Positions 1 through 30,456 are shown, counted from the first letter of the stretch. The stretch: DNA of 32,000 nucleotides from an uncultured archaeon (GCA_964586355.1 CAZPGO010000019.1:1-32000), one strand, 5' to 3'. Notes: generated by a model from the letters alone, not told the origin. Program-made: numbers and translations.

Positions 1-633
1 CATTATATTTATCCTAAAACCTTTTCTAATGGTCTAATGCAATTTAATTATTCTCCTCCTGCAAATATTGGCACTAAAGATATTGTGATTAATAAGTATA
101 AGATTTTTTATGATAATAATGAAACTGATGAAATTACATTAACTTCACCATACCCTTTAAAGCAAGGAATTAATTTTTTAAAATTAGATCTCTTTAACAA
201 TCAACACATTTCTTCAAGAAAGTTTACTGTTGTTCTTGAAACTGATGATAATAAGTATATTCTAGTTAAGAATATAACAAATCCTTATCCATATGATGAA
301 ACAGAAGAAGAACCAGAGGCTGTCTTAGAACAAGTTGCAACACCAACATTTGCTCCCGATGAAAATACAATTTATGAAACAATAAGTGTACAATTATTTT
401 GTTCAACACTTGATGCAATAATCTATTATACAATAGATGGAAGTCAACCAACTAGAGATAGTTTAGTTTATTCTAGTGCTATTACACTATCTCCAGACAC
501 AAATACAACTATTAATGGATTTGCTGTAAAAGACGGTTATGCTGATAGTCAAATAATTTTTGGTTGGTTTATATCTCCAATAGGTTCTGGGGGCGTTCCT
601 GTGCCTCCTCCAGGTGGGTTTGTGGGTCAATAA
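1..633 (+). CDS. 3' part of a secreted/surface protein gene (5' end outside the window) with a chitobiase/beta-hexosaminidase C-terminal-like (Fn3-associated) module
   Basis: Frame 1 has no stop from base 1 to the TAA at 631-633, so the listed Met at 37 is probably internal. 'PTFAPDENTIYETISVQLFCSTLDAIIYYTIDGSQPTRDSLVYSSAITLSPDTNTTINGFAVKDGYADSQII' fits the recalled pattern of that domain (P.F.P...V.L......IYYT.DGS.P...S..Y...I.L). The tail is Gly/Pro-rich. Confidence 0.5.
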   Translation, partial: HYIYPKTFSNGLMQFNYSPPANIGTKDIVINKYKIFYDNNETDEITLTSPYPLKQGINFLKLDLFNNQHISSRKFTVVLETDDNKYILVKNITNPYPYDETEEEPEAVLEQVATPTFAPDENTIYETISVQLFCSTLDAIIYYTIDGSQPTRDSLVYSSAITLSPDTNTTINGFAVKDGYADSQIIFGWFISPIGSGGVPVPPPGGFVGQ

Positions 634-12890: not shown

Positions 12891-13770
12891 ATGCAAAATA
12901 ATTCAATAGCAATTTTTGAAAATAAAAAAATAAGAAGAATCTGGCATAATGATAAATGGTGGTTTGTTTTAGAAGATGTTGTTTTTATACTTATTGATTC
13001 TTTAGATGTTAAACAATATATAAATAAAATGAAGCAAAGAGATGAATTTCTTTCTAAGGGTACAAATTGTACACACCCTTTCTGTTAAAACAATTGGTGG
13101 ACCACAAAATATGAATTGTGCAAATACAGAAGGATTATTTAGAATTATTCAGTCCATACCTTCTCCAAAAGTAGAACCATTTAAATTATGGCTTGCAAAA
13201 GTTGGTTATCAAAGAATGCAAGAGATTGAAAATCCAGAACTTGCTCAGAAAAGAATAATTGAGATCTATAAACAAAAAGGATATTCTGATGCTTGGATAG
13301 ACAAAAGAATAAGGGGTATTGCAATTAGAGACGAATTAACTTTTGAATGGCAAAAAAGAGGAATGAAAGGAGATAAAGATTTTGTAATATTAACAGCTGA
13401 AATATCAAAAGCCACATTTGAGATGACTCCAAAAGAATACAAAAAATTTAAGGGTCTAAAAAAAGAAAATCTTAGAGATCATATGAATGATCTAGAACTA
13501 ATTTTTACACTGTTGAAAGAATCTGTTACTAAGGAATTAACAGTTAAAGAAGGTCCAGATAATTTTCCAAAAACAAAAACAATTGCAAAACGTGGTGGTG
13601 GCGTTGCTGGTATTGCCAGAAAAGTAACAGAAAAAGAGCTTAAAAGGAAAGTTTCTACTAAAGACAATTATTTAAAAATTCCAGAAAAGCAAAAAAGATT
13701 ACTAAAAAGCCCAACACCAAATAAGAAAATAAAGTATGGTATTTCTAAGAAAAAATTAAATAAAAAGTAA
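12891..13770 (+). pseudogene. Bro-N / phage-antirepressor-like (DinD-like) gene split by a frameshift
   Basis: ORF 12891-13088 encodes 'IAIFENKKIRRIWHNDKWWFVLEDVV', a Bro-N N-terminus. ORF 13042-13770, in the +1 frame, continues with 'NTEGLFRIIQSIPSPKVEPFKLWLAKVG...IRDELTFEWQKRG...KKFKGLKKENLRDHMNDLELIF...AKRGGGVAGIARK'. I recall that run as one contiguous family in bacteria, archaea and phages. The two ORFs overlap by 47 nt. Confidence 0.7.
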
Positions 13771-16682: not shown

Positions 16683-17795
16683 ATGTTAAAGAAAATTGTT
16701 ATTTTTGGTTCAGATACTAGTTATGGAAAAATAGCTTTTGATTTTTTTTCAAAGTTTTCTGATTCTTATAAAATTGTTGGTCTTACTTTTTCTAGTGATA
16801 GTTCTTTATTTCTTAAGCAATTAAAAGCTACAAATTCACAATTTGCTATGGTTTCAGATGAAAAGATATGTAAAGAAATTGAATTAAAATTAAACACTCC
16901 AAATTGTTTTTTTTTCTCAAAAGAGAATTCTATTAATTTTGTAAAAAATTCTGATGCAGATATTTATGTGTTTACTGAGTCAAATACTAGTACTTTAAAA
17001 AACATTTTATCTATAATATATGATCAAAAAGATGTTGTTTTAATGTCTGTTGATCTAATTTTATTTTCTGGAAAAATTCTGAAATATGAAGCAAAATTAA
17101 AAGGCATTAATCTATATTCTATTACTTTACAAAACTATTCTTTAAATCAATTTTTAAAAGTTAGAAATATTAAAGAGTTGGACAAAATCATATTACTAAC
17201 ACAAAATAACAAATATACAAAAGAGGATGTAGAAGAATTTAAAAATCAAAAAAAAGATTTCTATAGATTTAAAAAATGTTTTTATAGTTTTACAAAATTT
17301 AATTTAGTACAACAATTATATTTAATAAATTATTTATATGATATTTCTCCAGAAAAATTTGACTATTTTAATCAAAGTAAGAATATTATAAGTCTCATTA
17401 CTGAGTTTTCGGATGGTAGTAATTTAATTAATACCACAAATAACGATATTTATCCAGTTTTATATTATTATTTTTGTAAAGACAAAGAAGGCTTTAAAGA
17501 TAAAAACTCTTTAATTTCAGGAGATAAAATAAATTTGTCCTTATCAAGATTAGATCTTTTAAAAGAGCCTTTTATTAAATTAGGTGTTGATTTTTTAAAA
17601 AAAGGCGGTTCTTTTCCAATTGTTTATTTTTTAGCTTTTGAAATTTTAACTGAAAAATATTGGAATAATAAAATTAAGTATAAGGATATCTTAAAAAAGT
17701 TAGAAACCCTTTATAATGATAAAAAGTATTATGTTACAAAACCAGATCTTAAAACAATAATTGCTCTTAAAAAAAAATTAGAAAATAATCTATAA
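16683..17795 (+). CDS. DXR-like protein (homologue of 1-deoxy-D-xylulose-5-phosphate reductoisomerase) with substituted cofactor and metal-binding motifs; probable pseudoenzyme or neofunctionalised enzyme
   Basis: Collinear over its full length with E. coli Dxr as I recall it. 'KKIVIFGSDTSYGKIAFDFF...YKIVGLTF' matches 'LTILGSTGSIGCSTLDVV...FRVVALVA'. 'LYSITLQNYSLNQFL' matches 'LLPVDSEHNAIFQSL'. 'KIILLTQNNKY' matches 'SILLTGSGGPF'. 'NQSKNIISLITEFSDGSNLINTTNNDIYPV' matches '[30 protein letters not shown]'. The length is similar (370 vs ~398 aa). Confidence 0.6.
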   Translation: MLKKIVIFGSDTSYGKIAFDFFSKFSDSYKIVGLTFSSDSSLFLKQLKATNSQFAMVSDEKICKEIELKLNTPNCFFFSKENSINFVKNSDADIYVFTESNTSTLKNILSIIYDQKDVVLMSVDLILFSGKILKYEAKLKGINLYSITLQNYSLNQFLKVRNIKELDKIILLTQNNKYTKEDVEEFKNQKKDFYRFKKCFYSFTKFNLVQQLYLINYLYDISPEKFDYFNQSKNIISLITEFSDGSNLINTTNNDIYPVLYYYFCKDKEGFKDKNSLISGDKINLSLSRLDLLKEPFIKLGVDFLKKGGSFPIVYFLAFEILTEKYWNNKIKYKDILKKLETLYNDKKYYVTKPDLKTIIALKKKLENNL

Positions 17796-21067: not shown

Positions 21068-22591
21068 ATGAATGAATTTAAAAGAAAAATAAAGTTGCTA
21101 GATCATATTGTTTTAGAAGTAATAGAAAAAGAAAAAATACCATTAGTAGTATCCAATCAAAACTTTGCAGAAGCACACTCCAGAACTGTTGCAAGACTTA
21201 GTCAGAGTGCAAAATCTTTTGAGCAAATAGTAAAAGAGATATTAACAGATGAGGGATTTGATAAAGAAAAGATTGGCAAATTCCATAAAGGAATAACTTT
21301 AGGAGTAGCACATCATTCTATAGAACAACATGGAAATGTTACTTTGTGTTTTGAAAACACAAGTATGCTTGTAACAAACAAATATTGTGAAAATAAAAGA
21401 CTTGCTGCATACCTAGAAAAGTCTACAAGATATCAGGATTTTTCTAAGCCTTGTTATATTATTCCTAAGGAGTTTGATTTGCATGAAAATAGCGATCTTA
21501 AAAAAGAGTATGTTGAAACAATGGATTTTTTGTTTAGTACCTATGCAATAATTTTGCCAAAAATAATTTCAAGAATAGAAAAGGAGTTAGAAAATAAGAA
21601 TATTACTTTAGATCCAAAAAGTATTAGAAAAAAAGCATTTGATTCTGCAAGATATATATTGCCAGCAAGTGCTTATACCAATTTTGCAATTACTACAAAT
21701 TCTCAGGTATTTAGATCTTTAATAGTAGATCTTTTATCAAATAATATTACTGAATTTAATGAGATCGGAAAAGAAATGCAACAAGAACTAATTAAAGTAT
21801 ATCCAACACTTTTGGAAATGGAGACTTGTGTTATTAATAAAGAAAGAGAGAGGTTTAAAGATTCTTCTAGCAAAATAAATCCAATATCTTTAAATCCAAA
21901 TAATAACAGTAATTTGAAGATAGATGATTTTGTTTTTGAAAATATAGAAAATACAGTAAAAATTATAGAACACACAAGACACTCAGAAAAACTTTTAGTA
22001 TATAATTATCTTTTAGATCTTGGGCATAGTGTTGATTATAGAGAAAATGAGGTCTTTTTAAATAATAATATTTTATCTAAAAAAGATTTAGAAAAATACC
22101 TAAAAGAAGCCTTTAACTTTGATTGTACCGGTTATAGACCACATAGGGCTTTAGAGCTTGCAAACTATACCTTTGAAGGTATTGTTGATTTTGGTGCTTG
22201 GAGAGATCTTCATAGAAATAGAATGCTTACTTGGATAAGTAGTTTTGTTTCTCCAGAATATGGTTTTTCAATACCGGTGTTTTTGGAGGATTGTAGAGAA
22301 GAGTATCTTTTAGGTTTAAAAAAAGCCTATGGTTTTTGGACAAAATTAATTAAAAGAGGATTTTCTAAGGAATTTTGTCAATATGTATGTCCATTAGCAA
22401 CTAATGCTAAGATTTTGTATACCATAAATGCAAGAGAACTTGATCATGTAAGTAAAACCAGAACTACAGAACACGCACATTTTTCATATAGATCTTTTGT
22501 TAATCAGTGTGTGTGTGAGGCTGAAAAAATAAACCCTGAAATTATTAAGCATATTAAAAATTATTATAAAGAACCACATTCTTTTACATAA
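21068..22591 (+). CDS. thyX: Flavin-dependent thymidylate synthase family protein (ThyX-like), long form with two tandem ThyX-like lobes
   Basis: Lobe 1: 'HHSIEQHGNVTLCF...ENKRLAAYLEKSTRY' and 'ARYILPASAYTNFAITTNSQVFRSL'. Lobe 2: 'HRALELANYTFEGIVDFGAWRDLHRNRMLTWISSFVSPEY' and 'CPLATNAKILYTINARELDHVSKTRTTEHAHFSYR'. Both are compared with the recalled ThyX motifs (H..PFEH, RHR..S....S.RY, AR..LP....T....N.R.L..F..LR....AQ.EIR). GGGAGATGG SD upstream. Confidence 0.65.
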   Translation: MNEFKRKIKLLDHIVLEVIEKEKIPLVVSNQNFAEAHSRTVARLSQSAKSFEQIVKEILTDEGFDKEKIGKFHKGITLGVAHHSIEQHGNVTLCFENTSMLVTNKYCENKRLAAYLEKSTRYQDFSKPCYIIPKEFDLHENSDLKKEYVETMDFLFSTYAIILPKIISRIEKELENKNITLDPKSIRKKAFDSARYILPASAYTNFAITTNSQVFRSLIVDLLSNNITEFNEIGKEMQQELIKVYPTLLEMETCVINKERERFKDSSSKINPISLNPNNNSNLKIDDFVFENIENTVKIIEHTRHSEKLLVYNYLLDLGHSVDYRENEVFLNNNILSKKDLEKYLKEAFNFDCTGYRPHRALELANYTFEGIVDFGAWRDLHRNRMLTWISSFVSPEYGFSIPVFLEDCREEYLLGLKKAYGFWTKLIKRGFSKEFCQYVCPLATNAKILYTINARELDHVSKTRTTEHAHFSYRSFVNQCVCEAEKINPEIIKHIKNYYKEPHSFT

Positions 22592-24450: not shown

Positions 24451-24954
24451 GTGATTAAAAGAGCAGTTTCTCCAATAATTAGTGTGATTTTACTTATTTT
24501 GGTTGCTGTTATTTTAATAACAATGTTTTTGTTATGGGCAAAGGTAGAAATAAAAGAAGATCTTCAAAGCTCTAGTGATGCTTTAAGTCCTGCTAGTGAT
24601 ATTGATTGTCTAAATTATAGCTTATCAGTAGACTCTTGTTTGATTTACTCTTCTTCAAAAAAAGTTGAGGTTCTTTTAACAAATGCAACATCAATAAGAT
24701 ATTTTGATATCATGTTAACAATAGAAGCAGAGAACCTATCAGAAGCAAAAGAAAAATGGGTTGGTGTTTTTTCAAATGCATTATTTCCAGGACATAGCAA
24801 ATTATATAATACTGATACAAATTTCTTATTTACAAAAAAAGAGAATTTTACAAATCTAAATTTTAATGAGATCTCTAATATTATTTTAACTAATGGGGCT
24901 TGTAAAAGAGAGATCATTAATCTAATTAATATGTGTGAGATTATTAATGAATAA
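24451..24954 (+). CDS. Archaeal type IV pilin-like protein (class III signal peptide, Pilin_N/DUF1628 type), paralogue 1
   Basis: The N-terminus 'MIKRAVSPIISVILLILVAVILITMF' fits the recalled (K/R)(G/A)(V/L)SPVI..VL(L/M)(I/V)AITV motif. GTG start with GTGAT 6 nt upstream. Confidence 0.7.
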   Translation: MIKRAVSPIISVILLILVAVILITMFLLWAKVEIKEDLQSSSDALSPASDIDCLNYSLSVDSCLIYSSSKKVEVLLTNATSIRYFDIMLTIEAENLSEAKEKWVGVFSNALFPGHSKLYNTDTNFLFTKKENFTNLNFNEISNIILTNGACKREIINLINMCEIINE

Positions 24955-25444
24955 AAAAGCTTTATCACCAATAATAAGTGTTATTTTAATAATTTTAGTT
25001 GCTGTTATATTAATTACTATGTTTTTAACATGGTCAAAGGAATATTATAATAATCAGTTAACCAACACTACTGAGCAGCTAAAACGAGCATCAAGTATTG
25101 AGTGTGCTAATTCTAAATTAAAAGTTTCTTCTTGTTCTTTTGATTCTTTTACTAAGGAGCTTTCTTTATTTTTAATAAATGATTCACAAATAAGATATTT
25201 TGATTTTACTTTAACTATAGAAGGAGTTGATCAAACATCTCAAGAACCAGTTAGACTTTATGGTGTTTTTAATCATATATTGGAGCCAGGAGCTTCTATC
25301 AATCTTTTAACAGATAGCAACTTTTTGGTTTTAGATTCTTCTGGTAATTATGAAAATTTAGATCTAAATAGTGTTTCTCTAATTAACCTAAGTAACGGTG
25401 CTTGCAAAAACCAGAACTTTGTTTTAGTGTGTTCTGTTGACTAA
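24947..25444 (+). CDS. Archaeal type IV pilin-like protein, paralogue 2
   Basis: 'MNKKALSPIISVILIILVAVILITMF'. I moved the start from 24935 to ATG 24947, which overlaps the upstream stop (ATGAATAA) and gives a typical short, charged signal peptide. It shares 'IRYFD', 'LTIE', 'GVF...PG.S' and 'NGACK' blocks with paralogue 1. Confidence 0.7.
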   Translation: MNKKALSPIISVILIILVAVILITMFLTWSKEYYNNQLTNTTEQLKRASSIECANSKLKVSSCSFDSFTKELSLFLINDSQIRYFDFTLTIEGVDQTSQEPVRLYGVFNHILEPGASINLLTDSNFLVLDSSGNYENLDLNSVSLINLSNGACKNQNFVLVCSVD

Positions 25445-26389: not shown

Positions 26390-26655
26390 TTTTTGTTCGT
26401 GCTCCTACAAATATATTTATTTTTAGTTGTTTTTATATATGTTTGTTTTTTATTTTAGAGTTGTTTTTGCACAATATCTTGGACAAGCCAACTTTTTTTA
26501 AAACAAAAAATAGGCATTTAAAAATAGATCCCCGTTTTTAACAAAAATTACTGATCTAAAAGATCTTACAATATATTTATATTTGTTTTTTAGAATAAGT
26601 AGTATAATAATGTTAAAAAATTAACTATGCTTATTTATCTTTGGAGATCTTATTT

Positions 26656-29600
26656 ATGAAAAAATTATTTTTGTTGTTTTTTTTAATACTTAACCTATCT
26701 ATGGTATTTAGTCTGACTCCTAATTTCTTTAATAAAGTTAACTATTATGATCAAATTATTGATGTTGGTGTTTTAGATAATAACCTTTCAGGAGATTTCT
26801 TAAAAATAACACTCTCAGATCAATATGAAACTTATTTTGAAGAGGCTTTTTCTATTAAAAATAGTAAAAAAATAGATGTTGTTTTTGATAGCTCTGTTTC
26901 TTCTTATCTTGTTGCAAACTATGAGGTTTTGGATTCTAATTATTCTATATTAGAGACCTATTCTTTTCCTTTATTTTTAGAGAGTATAGATCTTGGCAGA
27001 ATTTTTTTGTGTGATATAAAAGAATGCCATTATTCTGATTCCAAAAAATATTTTGATAATAGTTCTAAAATCTACCTTAATGTTGATAATAATTTAGATG
27101 TTAATTATTCTCTTGATCTTTTTTTAAAAGAAGGAAAAAATTATAAACTTTTATTTTCTGAAAGCACACATGTATTTCCTTATTTCTTAGCTATTGATGA
27201 TTCTGGTTCTTATAAGCTGGTTTTAAGTTATTATTTTGAAGATCTAATTTTTACTAAAAAAACTTTTTTTGAGATTGGGTCTCTAGAGCCAATTTCTTCT
27301 GATAGTTTTTCTGAGAGTAATATTGTATATTCTGATTTTGTGGATAGTAATTTAACAGAACCTGTTATAAATAAAAATACTTCTAATGATTCAAATACAT
27401 TATCAGAGAAAAATTATTTTTTTCAAAATTCAAAAAATATTTTAGCTTTGCTCTTTATATCTATTATTTTAATTTTGATTTTAATAATTTTATTTACAAG
27501 TAAAAATAAAAGATCAAGACATAGAAAAATAGCTTCTTTTTTTGTAGTTTTTTTTATTTTTTTTAATCTAGGATCTGTTTTTGCAGAATCTGAAAACGTT
27601 GTGACTTTGGAAGGTAGTACAAAACTTAATGAGATATTTACTTATTATAGAACCCTAAATGCAGCATCTAAAGACATAGTTTTTTCTTTTGAAATTAATG
27701 AAAGTCTAGAAGCTAATGACACTTTACTAGATAATTACCAGATTATACCTTCTGATGTAGACGACATTTTTAGAGAACCGATATTAGATTTAGAATATTC
27801 TAATAGATTTTTAGATTTTGCTGAAATTTATTCTTTGGAAAACAGATTAGAAACTGTTTATTTTTTTAATATTAATAAAAGTAATTCTACAGAGTATATA
27901 AATAATTCTTGTTTTGAAAATATTAGTAATTATTATAAAAGCATAGATTTTTTTGGTCAAACAAATATAATAAACGAACAAGAAACTATAAGACAGCTTT
28001 TTTTGCCAAGAACTAAACCATATATTGAATCAGAGCTAGAAAAGTTTGGAGATTCTGATTTTATTAATGATTGTTTTAATTTTTTATTAACTGAAAAAAT
28101 ACTTGTTCCCTATGATATTTTATTATATACAAAAGTGGAGCTAAAAAACATACCAAAAAATTTTGAGCTTTATATGTCTATTGAAACAATTAATTTTGAA
28201 CCTCCTTTTTTAACAACAAAAAAACCATTGGATATATTAGTTTCTTTTAAAAGAACCCCAATAGTTATAGAATCTAGTTATTCTATGCCCTATAACTGCG
28301 ATAAAGAAAATCTTAGTTATTGTTATATTAATAATTCTGACTTTGATTCAATTAAATATCTATCAGATACTGGTAGTATAGCAAGTCCAGAGTTTTATAA
28401 AAGAATGGATGATTATGCAAGTTATCTTAATAATTTTGATTTAGTAAAAGATCTATATAGAAAAGAGGTTGATGGAGTTAACATTAAAGATCTGCTCTCC
28501 TTTGCAGCAATTAATAGAGAAAATCTTTGTTTTTCTAATGAAAAAAGAGAATATAATGAATTAATTTTTGATGTAGCAAAGGCCTACAATTTTACAGACG
28601 AGCAAGCTTTACAGTTTTGGGCTTTGATTGCTGAGAGATCTAACTGTGATATTAATTATGATGATGTTGATAATGATTTGCTTGGTCTTGCACAAATAGA
28701 TTTAGAGGCATATTATAATCAGTATATTGATCTACATGCTTCTATGCATCCATTTTTAAAAGAAGAAGAGTATCTTCAGTATTTAGTTTTAGGAGACTTT
28801 AAAGAAATAAATGAAAAAAATATAGCAAAATTTGATGCTGATAAAGTTATTAGATTTGGTGGGCTTTCTAGTAAAATAAGTAATATGTACTGGTATTATG
28901 AATTTCTTATAAAAGCAATAAAAAATAGTAAAGATAAATACGGGTCTTTAGTTTTGTTTGCAGGAACAGATTATTTAAAAGAAATGACTACTCTTGTTAA
29001 TTTTTGTGAGAAGTATTATACAGATAACTATCTTGAAAATATCTATTATGATTATGAATCTTTTGTGACAGATAATTTAAAAAAAAACTTAAGAAGCATT
29101 TTTGTTCTAAGTAGTTTACTGGATAAAAAAGAGTTCTCTTTTACTGAAGAGATATGTAAGTATACTGGGGAGCCTGAGTCTATAGTTATGGAATATCCAA
29201 TAATATATACAAATCTAACTGGCAATTATTGTATAGATAATGGATTTGTGCCATCTGTTAATTATCCTAGATACAAAAAAATAGACGGTGTTACTTATCA
29301 TGGAACTGGTGCTTTACTATATAAATGTGAGGATAATAAGATATATAGCTGTATTCCAGGAACAGAGATCATACAAGAAGTAAGTGGATCTGCAGTAAAT
29401 ATACTTAAAGAAGAGCTTTGTTCTAGAGAGCTAATTCTAAAAGAAAAAAGAGTTAAGATTTCTAAAGAGTTTAAGGTTTTAATAAATTATCTTGCAATAA
29501 AGCACAAATATTTGACTAATAGAGAATATTTTGTTTCTAATGGTTTTTTAGAAGACTCTTCTAATGACTCAAAGAAATTTCTTGAAAATAAAACAAATTA

Positions 29601-30456
29601 TTTTAAATTGAAATATGATTATTTTGATATTAAAAAAGAGAATTTTTTAGAGATCACTGCTGAAAAAAATATTTCTTTGTTAAAAAGAATTGATCCAAAT
29701 TATTATTTTGCAGAGATTTTACAAAATAGAAGAAGTTTAGCCTATGCAAGGTCTGGTAACTGTGCTCAGTTTGTTAGAGAAATTGGAACAAATCTTTTTA
29801 CTTCAGAGCTTTATCCAAGAGCAGGAGTTTCTGCTGCTTGGTTATATGATACTACTCCAACAGTAAAAGAGAGATATAATTTAATTTGGGAATCTCCAAT
29901 TGTTTGTTATAGTAAACCAGGAAACAGAAAATTACCAAGAAGTCGTTGTGTTGAGACCCCAGAAGTACAAAGTCCTACTTTAGATTTAGATCTGTTGCCT
30001 GATGGTGCGATCTTAGGTCTTTATGTTTGTAAACAAAGTCATGGGTCTTTAAGAAATCTAGAGTATACACATGTTGGGACCTATATTGGCAAAGATCAAC
30101 TAGGTCATCATTTGTTTATACATATGGGTAATTCTAGATCTATAGAGATAATAAGTGAATATACCTCTCACATATGTAGTTCTGGGTATAATAGGCAAAT
30201 AATGAGAGTCTATGTCCCAAAATCCACAGGAATAACTAGTATGGATCAATTAAGGGAATTAAAAGAAAAAGATTTATTACAACCAGTTACCTGGATTAAA
30301 GATATTAACGAAGTTATAAATAGATCAAATGGACTAGAATATCCTGAATTTGGTATTCAAGATGAAGAAGAAATGGATTCTTCTGAATATGAATCAGATG
30401 ATTCAGAAAGCGAAGATGCAGATCTTGAAGAAAATGCAGAGCAAGAATCTGAATAA
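26656..30456 (+). CDS. Giant surface protein (~1266 aa): signal peptide, ectodomain 1, internal TM hairpin, ectodomain 2 with an SLT-like lytic-transglycosylase motif set and a C-terminal NlpC/P60-like Cys-His peptidase motif set, then an acidic tail
   Basis: The start is set at ATG 26656 (GGAGAT SD 8 nt upstream; 'MKKLFLLFFLILNLSMVFS' is a signal peptide) rather than TTG 26641. SLT-like: 'LIAERSNCD...DLLGLAQID...ISNMYWYYEFLIKAIK...GSLVLFAGTDYL' against the recalled ES...GLMQ...YL...AYNAG. NlpC/P60-like: 'SGNCAQFVREIG' (Cys) ... 'LPDGAILGLYV' ... 'YTHVGTYIGKDQLGHHLFIHMGNS' against the recalled DCSGFV ... GDLVFF ... HVGIYIG.....IHA. Confidence 0.7.
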   Translation: MKKLFLLFFLILNLSMVFSLTPNFFNKVNYYDQIIDVGVLDNNLSGDFLKITLSDQYETYFEEAFSIKNSKKIDVVFDSSVSSYLVANYEVLDSNYSILETYSFPLFLESIDLGRIFLCDIKECHYSDSKKYFDNSSKIYLNVDNNLDVNYSLDLFLKEGKNYKLLFSESTHVFPYFLAIDDSGSYKLVLSYYFEDLIFTKKTFFEIGSLEPISSDSFSESNIVYSDFVDSNLTEPVINKNTSNDSNTLSEKNYFFQNSKNILALLFISIILILILIILFTSKNKRSRHRKIASFFVVFFIFFNLGSVFAESENVVTLEGSTKLNEIFTYYRTLNAASKDIVFSFEINESLEANDTLLDNYQIIPSDVDDIFREPILDLEYSNRFLDFAEIYSLENRLETVYFFNINKSNSTEYINNSCFENISNYYKSIDFFGQTNIINEQETIRQLFLPRTKPYIESELEKFGDSDFINDCFNFLLTEKILVPYDILLYTKVELKNIPKNFELYMSIETINFEPPFLTTKKPLDILVSFKRTPIVIESSYSMPYNCDKENLSYCYINNSDFDSIKYLSDTGSIASPEFYKRMDDYASYLNNFDLVKDLYRKEVDGVNIKDLLSFAAINRENLCFSNEKREYNELIFDVAKAYNFTDEQALQFWALIAERSNCDINYDDVDNDLLGLAQIDLEAYYNQYIDLHASMHPFLKEEEYLQYLVLGDFKEINEKNIAKFDADKVIRFGGLSSKISNMYWYYEFLIKAIKNSKDKYGSLVLFAGTDYLKEMTTLVNFCEKYYTDNYLENIYYDYESFVTDNLKKNLRSIFVLSSLLDKKEFSFTEEICKYTGEPESIVMEYPIIYTNLTGNYCIDNGFVPSVNYPRYKKIDGVTYHGTGALLYKCEDNKIYSCIPGTEIIQEVSGSAVNILKEELCSRELILKEKRVKISKEFKVLINYLAIKHKYLTNREYFVSNGFLEDSSNDSKKFLENKTNYFKLKYDYFDIKKENFLEITAEKNISLLKRIDPNYYFAEILQNRRSLAYARSGNCAQFVREIGTNLFTSELYPRAGVSAAWLYDTTPTVKERYNLIWESPIVCYSKPGNRKLPRSRCVETPEVQSPTLDLDLLPDGAILGLYVCKQSHGSLRNLEYTHVGTYIGKDQLGHHLFIHMGNSRSIEIISEYTSHICSSGYNRQIMRVYVPKSTGITSMDQLRELKEKDLLQPVTWIKDINEVINRSNGLEYPEFGIQDEEEMDSSEYESDDSESEDADLEENAEQESE

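Follow-up and report, generated by a model that had tools for sequence, protein, structure and literature searches.

Gene and product

An uninterrupted open reading frame (ORF) of an uncultured archaeon, located on the plus strand at positions 26656–30456 of the 32,000-nucleotide stretch of DNA analysed here (the window; GCA_964586355.1, CAZPGO010000019.1:1–32000), specifies a product of 1266 amino acids (aa) according to the ORF listing of the window, and is closed by a stop codon at 30454–30456. An in-frame TTG lies upstream, at 26641; since the homologues begin with MKK, translation more likely starts from the ATG at 26656. A word-indexed search returned five full-length homologues with 42–86% identity to this product, and the identical protein is present on JGI, NCBI and Logan contigs (up to 156 kb). 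An earlier note on this DNA had described the product as a surface protein with two ectodomains which combines motif sets of the lytic transglycosylase (SLT) and NlpC/P60 types, and the ORF and all of the motif strings quoted there lie where it had placed them. The features of the gene are listed below with the evidence for each; relatives of the protein carry our own labels (P0001 and so on), and P0001–P0006 make up the window clade.

26656–30456, plus strand: whole gene, for a predicted multidomain surface protein of 1266 aa (ORF list; homologues)
26656–26712, plus strand: predicted signal peptide, aa 1–19, MKKLFLLFFLILNLSMVFS (hydropathy peak; kept among homologues; presumably cleaved)
26713–27423, plus strand: predicted ectodomain 1, aa 20–256, no known family (no Pfam or PHROG match; window clade P0001–P0006 only)
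27439–27585, plus strand: predicted transmembrane span 1 (TM1), aa 262–282, basic cytoplasmic loop KNKRSRHRK, aa 283–291, and TM2 or internal signal-like segment, aa 292–310, ...GSVFA/ES (hydropathy)
27598–28377, plus strand: N-domain, family-specific, aa 315–574 (exhaustive profile search; no known family)
28540–29112, plus strand: putative diverged lysozyme-like (GH23/SLT-like) module, aa 629–819 (homology to the ESGC subgroup; AlphaFold2 (AF2) model; Foldseek; hhalign)
29155–29421, plus strand: small Cys-rich module, aa 834–922, with seven Cys (composition; similarity to an insert in P0009/P0010)
29443–29697, plus strand: helical linker, aa 930–1014, ISKEFKVLINYLAIK..., conserved across the family (AF2, helices 8–95 of the model; alignment A6)
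29698–30237, plus strand: module B, probably a diverged NlpC/P60-like papain-fold module, aa 1015–1194 (hhalign; AF2; Foldseek; correlation of its Cys with architecture)
30361–30453, plus strand: poly-acidic C-terminal tail, aa 1236–1266 (composition)

The hydropathy profile, with a signal peptide at aa 1–19 and hydrophobic spans at aa 262–282 and 292–310 between which KNKRSRHRK is located, would together with the positive-inside rule give a membrane-anchored, outward-facing protein with two ectodomains, and its surface exposure, as supposed in the earlier note, is predicted on this basis. Neither Pfam, NCBIfam nor PHROG recognised a family anywhere in the whole protein, nor did Pfam and NCBIfam in segments of about 300 aa, which bears out the earlier remark that some 600 residues are without a recognisable family. 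Searches of PDB sequences by phmmer and profile hmmsearch (with the query and with alignments A3–A7) gave noise only. Both motif sets sit inside the most conserved blocks among 6–16 homologues. Loose regular expressions matched 0.4% (SLT core) and 0/5000 (NlpC pattern) of composition-preserving shuffles, figures which overstate the significance since the expressions were chosen post hoc.

The NlpC/P60-like module

Module B contains GNCAQFV (aa 1034–1040) with Cys1036 (29761–29763), the strand LLPDGAILGLY (aa 1113–1123), overlapped by LPDGAILGLYV (aa 1114–1124), and THVGTYIGK...FIHMGNS (aa 1138–1160) with His1139 (30070–30072) and His1156 (30121–30123). The last of these had been numbered H1159 and placed 15 residues after the first His; the His of FIHMG is in fact His1156, 17 residues after His1139.

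The core of the module was compared by hhalign with a reference set consisting of Spr (2K1G), 7CFL and LytE (8I2D), verified against the PDB, and four PF00877 domains which occur in members of the family described below. The match has a probability of 93.4% (E 2.5e-7) and a score of 47.6, which was reached by none of 150 column shuffles (11.1 +/- 2.2), and it spans 38 columns, that is, the C-terminal His-His beta-core only. Within these columns the counterpart of His1139 in Spr and LytE is their catalytic His and that of His1156 their third triad residue, and IMRV coincides with the terminal strand; in a relaxed alignment LLPDGAILGLY falls opposite LRTGDLVLF. An insert of approximately 100 residues separates the Cys helix from the beta-core. 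The AF2 model, built from a 13-sequence alignment, has a mean predicted local distance difference test score (pLDDT) of 69, with 78–89 in the beta-core, and a predicted template modelling score of 0.68; it places Cys1036 at the N-terminus of helix 107–119 and both His residues on beta-strands. When this model was compared with the PDB by Foldseek the top matches, none of them significant, were of papain fold: staphopain (E 0.033), the catalytic domains of USP25/28, and the papain-like toxin 9L5U (TM-score 0.47). The earlier assignment of a C-terminal NlpC/P60-like module, and of its catalytic residues apart from the numbering of the second His, thus agrees with the position of Cys1036 at a helix N-terminus and the alignment of His1139 and His1156 with Spr and LytE. 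We therefore regard module B as probably an NlpC/P60-type domain of papain fold which has diverged strongly.

A triad of the form C/H/H or C/H/E is kept in 11 lineages (P0001–P0005, P0007, P0008, P0021/P0023/P0024 and P0017). In P0006, P0009, P0010 and P0011 the Cys is replaced by Pro; three of these four also lack the second His, and P0009 lacks the first as well. All of the Cys-less proteins carry an extra domain, either a canonical NlpC/P60 or a strong lysozyme-like domain of the "ESGC" type, and the Cys-bearing proteins carry none (Fisher's exact p = 0.002, uncorrected for phylogeny). The switch is seen even inside a single 90%-identity cluster, between variants of 868 and 1070 aa. The earlier note had held that a catalytic Cys which is not conserved would speak against the assignment. 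Cys is indeed lost in four lineages; since its loss is always paired with an added hydrolase domain, however, Cys1036 appears to matter to function, and module B is probably active in the window protein.

Two candidate interpretations were rejected. The permuted NlpC/P60 arrangement (PF05708, Peptidase_C92; YaeF/YiiX), in which the Cys is C-terminal to the His, would involve Cys1174, and the stretch of P0006 homologous to module B gives a sub-threshold match to this model (E 5e-4; 20.6 bits, the cutoff being 27). Cys1174 is absent from P0007–P0011, and because it is not conserved outside the window clade, whereas the upstream Cys1036 co-varies with architecture, we discarded this reading. Nor can the PF00877 annotation of P0006 be taken as support for module B, the match being located in an extra C-terminal domain which replaces the acidic tail of the window protein.

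The lysozyme-like module

The motifs of the more N-terminal module are IAERSNCD (aa 658–665), in which Glu660 is encoded at 28633–28635, GLAQID (aa 677–682), 17 residues after that Glu, MYWYYEFLIKAIK (aa 744–756) and LVLFAGTDYL (aa 765–774). Ser662, Gly677 and Gln680 do not vary among 16 sequences, nor does Glu660 among all 11 of the window type. LVLFAGTDYL had been likened to the AYNAG motif. It aligns instead with motif III of the lytic transglycosylases (..G..YL), and the somewhat longer string GSLVLFAGTDYL (aa 763–774) fits the pattern ..N-I..G..Y-L of that motif; the position of motif IV is occupied by FVLSSLL in the window subgroup and by A-Y-x-Y-x-G in the ESGC relatives.

This module is homologous to the ESGC subgroup of domains within the family (hhalign probability 98.8%, E 5e-17), and the latter possess the four motifs of family-1 lytic transglycosylases in order: ES, G[IV]xQ, [ND]P..[ST]A...Y and AY.Y.G. 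In the ungapped register A-E660-R661-S662-N-C of the window protein lies opposite A-[AQ]-E-S-G-[CA], and in the best alignment with Slt70 the catalytic Glu478 is likewise opposite Arg661. In the AF2 model (pLDDT 65, and 71–83 around the motif helices) a helix ends at AERS and is followed by a predicted beta-hairpin at GLAQI, on which the GLMQ-type motif G677-L-A-Q680 falls; as modelled, this arrangement is a lysozyme-like topology.

Comparisons with proteins outside of the family gave weak signals. No match was obtained to PF01464, nor to other curated models or PDB sequences, and one relative matched Phage_lysozyme2 at E 0.047. The PDB list returned by Foldseek, for which E values are given below, holds the g-type lysozymes 3MGW, 4G9S and 3WYH as well as MltE, and the named matches in BFVD are mostly endolysin, "Transglycosylase SLT domain", LT_GEWL, lysozyme and phage tail lysozyme, with local superpositions of 2.7–6.5 Å over 44–75 residues. 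Against verified GH23 references (Slt70, PaSlt and three g-lysozymes) hhalign always picked the ES...GLMQ segment (P 0.025–0.5), at a score of 20.9 which none of 100 column shuffles reached (10.6 +/- 1.9; a lenient null); equally thin profiles detect the relationship between g-lysozyme and Slt70 at E 2e-5. A search with the ESGC subgroup, widened toward annotated SLT proteins, yielded four unannotated matches and nothing else. On balance we lean towards a lysozyme-like fold for this module, and canonical catalysis by it is doubtful. The addition of an ES-type copy in P0009/P0010, despite the presence of a window-type copy, suggests that the two types are seemingly not functionally equivalent.

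The protein family and its modular architecture

The family is small: when 1.84 billion cluster representatives were searched exhaustively by HMMER with a profile of ectodomain 2, only 13 proteins were returned at E<=1e-3. Judged from the sequences recovered, it has so far been found in metagenome-assembled genomes (MAGs) of the Iainarchaeota/Diapherotrites type alone. Common to its members, including P0007–P0013, is the N-domain, which is possibly a targeting or binding domain. What follows it varies. P0007, P0008 and P0021 possess a signal peptide, the N-domain, the SLT-like module, module B and an acidic tail; in P0012 and P0013 a genuine NlpC/P60 domain (PF00877) follows immediately upon the N-domain; P0006 and P0011 have such a domain added after module B; and P0009 and P0010 have gained a second lysozyme-like domain, of the ESGC type, which also occurs in other contexts in P0014, P0015 and P0017. 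Acidic tails or linkers like that of the window protein are also found in P0007, P0008, P0021 and P0009–P0011, and it is at the position of the acidic tail that the extra hydrolase domains of the relatives are attached.

The canonical NlpC/P60 domains of the family resemble murein DL-endopeptidases (hhalign probability 98%, E 1e-13 to Spr/LytE). A search seeded with the canonical NlpC/P60 sub-sequence gave no return, and phmmer of that domain against the PDB gave none.

Ectodomain 1 is missing from P0007–P0013, which start at the equivalent of TM2. In the window protein this segment (27529–27585, aa 292–310, ...NLGSVFA/ES) aligns with the N-terminal signal peptides of these shorter relatives. 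Because of this correspondence it looks as though, in the window clade, a signal peptide, ectodomain 1 and TM1 had been joined to the N-terminus of a secreted protein. Continued cleavage at TM2 by signal peptidase would set ectodomain 2 free.

Two further observations concern the exchange of segments. The Cys-rich module (29155–29421, aa 834–922) shows 34% identity (E 2e-4) to an insert within the SLT-like domain of P0009/P0010, and P0007, P0008 and P0011 are without it. We take it for an apparently mobile mini-domain. Members of the 90%-identity cluster of P0011 are near-identical over the N-terminal two thirds, and the C-terminal third exists in two forms: Cys-bearing module B with an acidic tail in the 868-aa proteins P0021/P0023, and a Cys-to-Pro module B with a canonical NlpC/P60 domain in P0011/P0022 (approximately 1070 aa). 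The presence of two C-terminal forms on near-identical N-terminal regions suggests a recent exchange of cassettes between strains.

Proposed role and alternatives

The reading which we favour, with a probability of roughly 0.45, is that of a multidomain surface protein in which module B acts as a catalytic warhead against the murein-type wall of another cell, most likely a bacterium, and the lysozyme-like module serves in binding or has an altered activity. Ectodomain 2 would then be a wall-hydrolase-like assembly made up of the N-domain, the lysozyme-like module, the Cys-rich module, module B and the acidic tail. The N-domain and the lysozyme-like module would place the warhead on a glycan-peptide wall, and module B, with its intact Cys1036-His1139-His1156 triad, would cleave the peptide stems of the foreign wall at the archaeal surface. 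For the lysozyme-like module glycan-strand binding or altered catalysis would be the more likely function, given that its glutamate does not occupy the canonical position. The warhead slot would have been refilled over the course of evolution. Both the catalytic activity of the window protein and the nature of its substrate are presumed; a murein-type substrate is favoured since the canonical NlpC/P60 domains of the family are closest to murein DL-endopeptidases.

Several results weigh against this. Neither module matches Pfam, NCBIfam or PDB sequences, and PF00877 in particular matches neither the whole protein nor module B, even at E<=10. Global alignment of module B to NlpC/P60 by hhalign fails, and its Cys helix is not alignable at the sequence level. 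All of the Foldseek matches are non-significant, the best being at E 0.03 for module B and, for the lysozyme-like module, at E 1.2 (PDB) and 0.58 (BFVD), and the models are moderately confident (pLDDT 65–69). The position of the canonical ES glutamate is taken by Arg661 (Arg, Lys or Leu across the window-type subgroup), with Glu660 one residue upstream. Of the SLT-like module postulated in the earlier note there stands, accordingly, that every weak signal points to GH23/lysozyme-like folds; a significant profile or structure match, a glutamate in register and an equivalent of AYNAG were not found. Lastly, the window holds nothing that identifies the partner organism or the substrate, and the known hosts of DPANN archaea are mostly other archaea, which lack murein.

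If the displaced glutamate were nonetheless catalytic the protein would be fully bifunctional, the lysozyme-like module being an active lytic transglycosylase or muramidase which employs Glu660, and module B an active endopeptidase, so that a foreign murein would be cut in its glycan as well as in its peptide part, in the manner of enzymes of the CwlT/Tn916-Orf14 type. The invariance of Glu660 in the window-type sequences, its position at a helix end beside the invariant Ser662, the invariant GLxQ motif, and a GH23 signal which is weak yet consistent and in the correct register are all in keeping with this, and the pairing of lysozyme and NlpC/P60 domains is well established (4FDY and 4HPE are among the PDB NlpC/P60 matches). 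It is nevertheless an improbable reading in our estimation, since a basic residue or Leu stands where the ES glutamate is expected, no AYNAG-like motif is present in the window-type module, neither the profile nor the fold matches are significant, and P0009/P0010 have added a copy with canonical ES beside the window-type copy, which suggests that the two are not equivalent.

The target might, on the other hand, not be murein at all. Module B could be a papain-like protease, amidase or acyltransferase which acts on the S-layer of an archaeal host or on the cell's own envelope, in attachment, surface remodelling or nutrient scavenging, with the lysozyme-like module functioning in carbohydrate binding or adhesion. 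One would then understand why the best structural matches are to general papain-fold proteases (staphopains, USPs) and not to NlpC/P60 structures, and why both modules are very distant from murein-active families; archaea are without murein, the known partners of DPANN archaea are mostly archaea, and two type-IV-pilin-like genes just upstream are consistent with a cell-contact locus. The sequence-profile match is, however, specific to NlpC/P60, and module B is replaced or supplemented within the family by canonical NlpC/P60 domains near the murein DL-endopeptidases, or by lysozyme-like domains, and we judge this explanation slightly less probable still than a bifunctional enzyme. That the motif sets are coincidental or vestigial, and the product a purely structural surface or adhesion protein without a hydrolase-related fold, would account for the failure of curated families to detect it and for Foldseek matches which are non-significant throughout. 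To this we give very little credence, given the NlpC/P60 profile-profile match which no shuffle (0/150) equalled, the invariance of the motif residues across distant relatives, the correlation of Cys loss with the gain of other hydrolase domains, and structural matches which, though weak, are of a consistent fold class in two libraries.

Extended to the whole family, the favoured role of module B as a murein-directed warhead would lead to a wall-breaching device, restricted to DPANN archaea, by which archaea of the Iainarchaeota type attach to or prey on bacteria; an interchangeable warhead slot, occupied by an NlpC/P60 domain (diverged or canonical) or by a lysozyme-like one, would be carried on a constant targeting scaffold, and the lysozyme-like module would be a non-canonical catalyst or a glycan binder. 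This we offer as speculation, and think it rather unlikely to hold in full.

Comparison with known systems

With the NlpC/P60 peptidases (MEROPS C40, PF00877; E. coli MepS/Spr, B. subtilis LytE/CwlO) module B shares the order Cys...His...His, an 'L-x-x-G-D/A-hydrophobic' strand, 'H-V-G-x-Y-I-G', 'F-I-H' and a last 'R-V' strand, together with a Cys at a helix N-terminus (in the AF2 model) and a predicted extracellular location. It differs in the insert between Cys helix and beta-core, which has about 100 residues and three conserved Cys as against about 50 residues in Spr, and in the Cys helix itself, where GNCAQFV stands in place of DCSGF and cannot be aligned by profile methods. Unlike the bacteria in question, the host of the 1266-aa protein is an archaeon without murein of its own.

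The GH23 enzymes (family 1 lytic transglycosylases and goose-type lysozymes; Slt70, MltE, GEWL) resemble the other module, as modelled, in a helix ending in ...E-x-S, a beta-hairpin with G-L-x-Q and a later G-x-x-Y-L helix (motif III). They differ from it at the catalytic Glu position, which is Arg661 in the window protein with Glu at -1, in possessing the AYNAG motif, and in having a shorter spacer between motifs II and III.

In domain order, close parallels are CwlT of ICEBs1, the Tn916 Orf14-like proteins (PDB 4FDY/4HPE) and tail-associated lysins of phages, in which a module of glycan-cleaving type is N-terminal to one of NlpC/P60 type in a single secreted polypeptide, presumably for local breaching of the wall. 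Unlike these, the window gene is chromosomal and lies among housekeeping genes, and the order DHH - gene - RuBisCO is conserved in another MAG; its product, 3–4 times the size, possesses an additional ectodomain, two TM spans, the N-domain, the Cys-rich module and the acidic tail, and the Glu of its glycosidase-like module is out of register.

The concept itself is already known. Peptidoglycan hydrolases from archaea have been shown to kill bacteria, and about 5% of archaeal genomes encode homologues (Strock et al. 2025, PMC12352652), and large GH23 "lytic murein transglycosylases" have been described in DPANN Woesearchaeota (Vigneron et al. 2022, PMC9723730). Like the present protein these are secreted or surface proteins resembling murein hydrolases, occur in murein-free archaea, are prominent in DPANN and have been read as antibacterial or predatory tools; they were found, however, by homology to known peptidoglycan-hydrolase domains, and to such searches the window protein is invisible. 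What we regard as new is a small, Pfam-invisible family in which both modules have diverged very far, the glutamate is displaced, and catalytic domains have been lost and replaced. Surveys of archaeal anti-bacterial weaponry depend on recognisable peptidoglycan-hydrolase domains and would miss it. Should the family be active on murein, such weapons would be commoner in DPANN archaea than the published share of archaeal genomes (about 5%), a direct, cross-domain physical interaction with bacteria would be indicated for some Iainarchaeota/Diapherotrites, and the swapping of warheads on a conserved scaffold would constitute a natural experiment from which the important residues can be read. Profile models, moreover, could gain in sensitivity from the very divergent NlpC/P60 and GH23-like sequences of the family.

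Organism and genomic setting

The window contains an archaeal RNA polymerase and ribosomal cluster (split RpoB, RpoA, L7Ae/L30e, S7 and EF-2), a D-aminoacyl-tRNA deacylase of archaeal type, ThyX and a form III RuBisCO. The target gene is flanked by genes for a DHH phosphoesterase and RuBisCO. Its sole match among 185,579 reference genomes is in a MAG labelled Candidatus (I)ainarchaeum sp., where the order DHH phosphoesterase - target gene - RuBisCO recurs; the labels of other relatives read "Candidatus Diapherotrites archaeon" or "archaeon", and the distant relative P0017 is likewise surrounded by housekeeping genes. A PHROG search returned no matches, and neither type IV secretion system nor phage genes were found around the target gene. 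On the strength of the housekeeping neighbours, the conserved synteny and the lack of PHROG matches the gene is chromosomal, in a DPANN archaeon of the Iainarchaeota/Diapherotrites type, and not part of a phage or conjugative element. The earlier note had surmised a small-genome, probably episymbiotic archaeon, and a host of DPANN type is supported by the archaeal gene content and the relatives in DPANN MAGs; it had also drawn a parallel to conjugation systems and phage tails, with which this setting does not agree, and a phage origin of the gene was discarded for want of PHROG matches.

Other features of the window

Approximately 1.2 kb upstream of the target gene are two adjacent paralogous ORFs of about 167 aa each (24451–24954 and 24935–25444, plus strand). 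At their N-termini (..KRAVSPIISVILLILVAVILI.. and ..KKALSPIISVILIILVAVILI..) they resemble the class III signal peptides of archaeal type IV pilins, while the C-terminal halves are alike and contain Cys; neither ORF has a Pfam match. The pair may be part of a cell-contact locus.

An ORF of 242 aa (13042–13770, plus strand), located between the genes for S7 and EF-2 within the conserved archaeal cluster, possesses a BRO-N domain (PF02498, E 2e-6), which is typical of phages and viruses. The 370-aa product of the ORF at 16683–17795 (plus strand) matches 1-deoxy-D-xylulose 5-phosphate (DXP) reductoisomerase (PF02670, PF13288), an enzyme of the bacterial-type methylerythritol phosphate (MEP) isoprenoid pathway and unexpected for an archaeon; it may have been horizontally acquired. 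With 507 aa and two stretches matching Thy1 (PF02511), the ThyX homologue (21068–22591, plus strand) is roughly double the normal size, which suggests a tandem-duplicated, fused ThyX. At the edge of the window an ORF of 198 aa (37–633, plus strand) carries CHB_HEX_C_1 and Fn3-associated domains (E 4e-18) and is likely to specify another extracellular carbohydrate-related protein.

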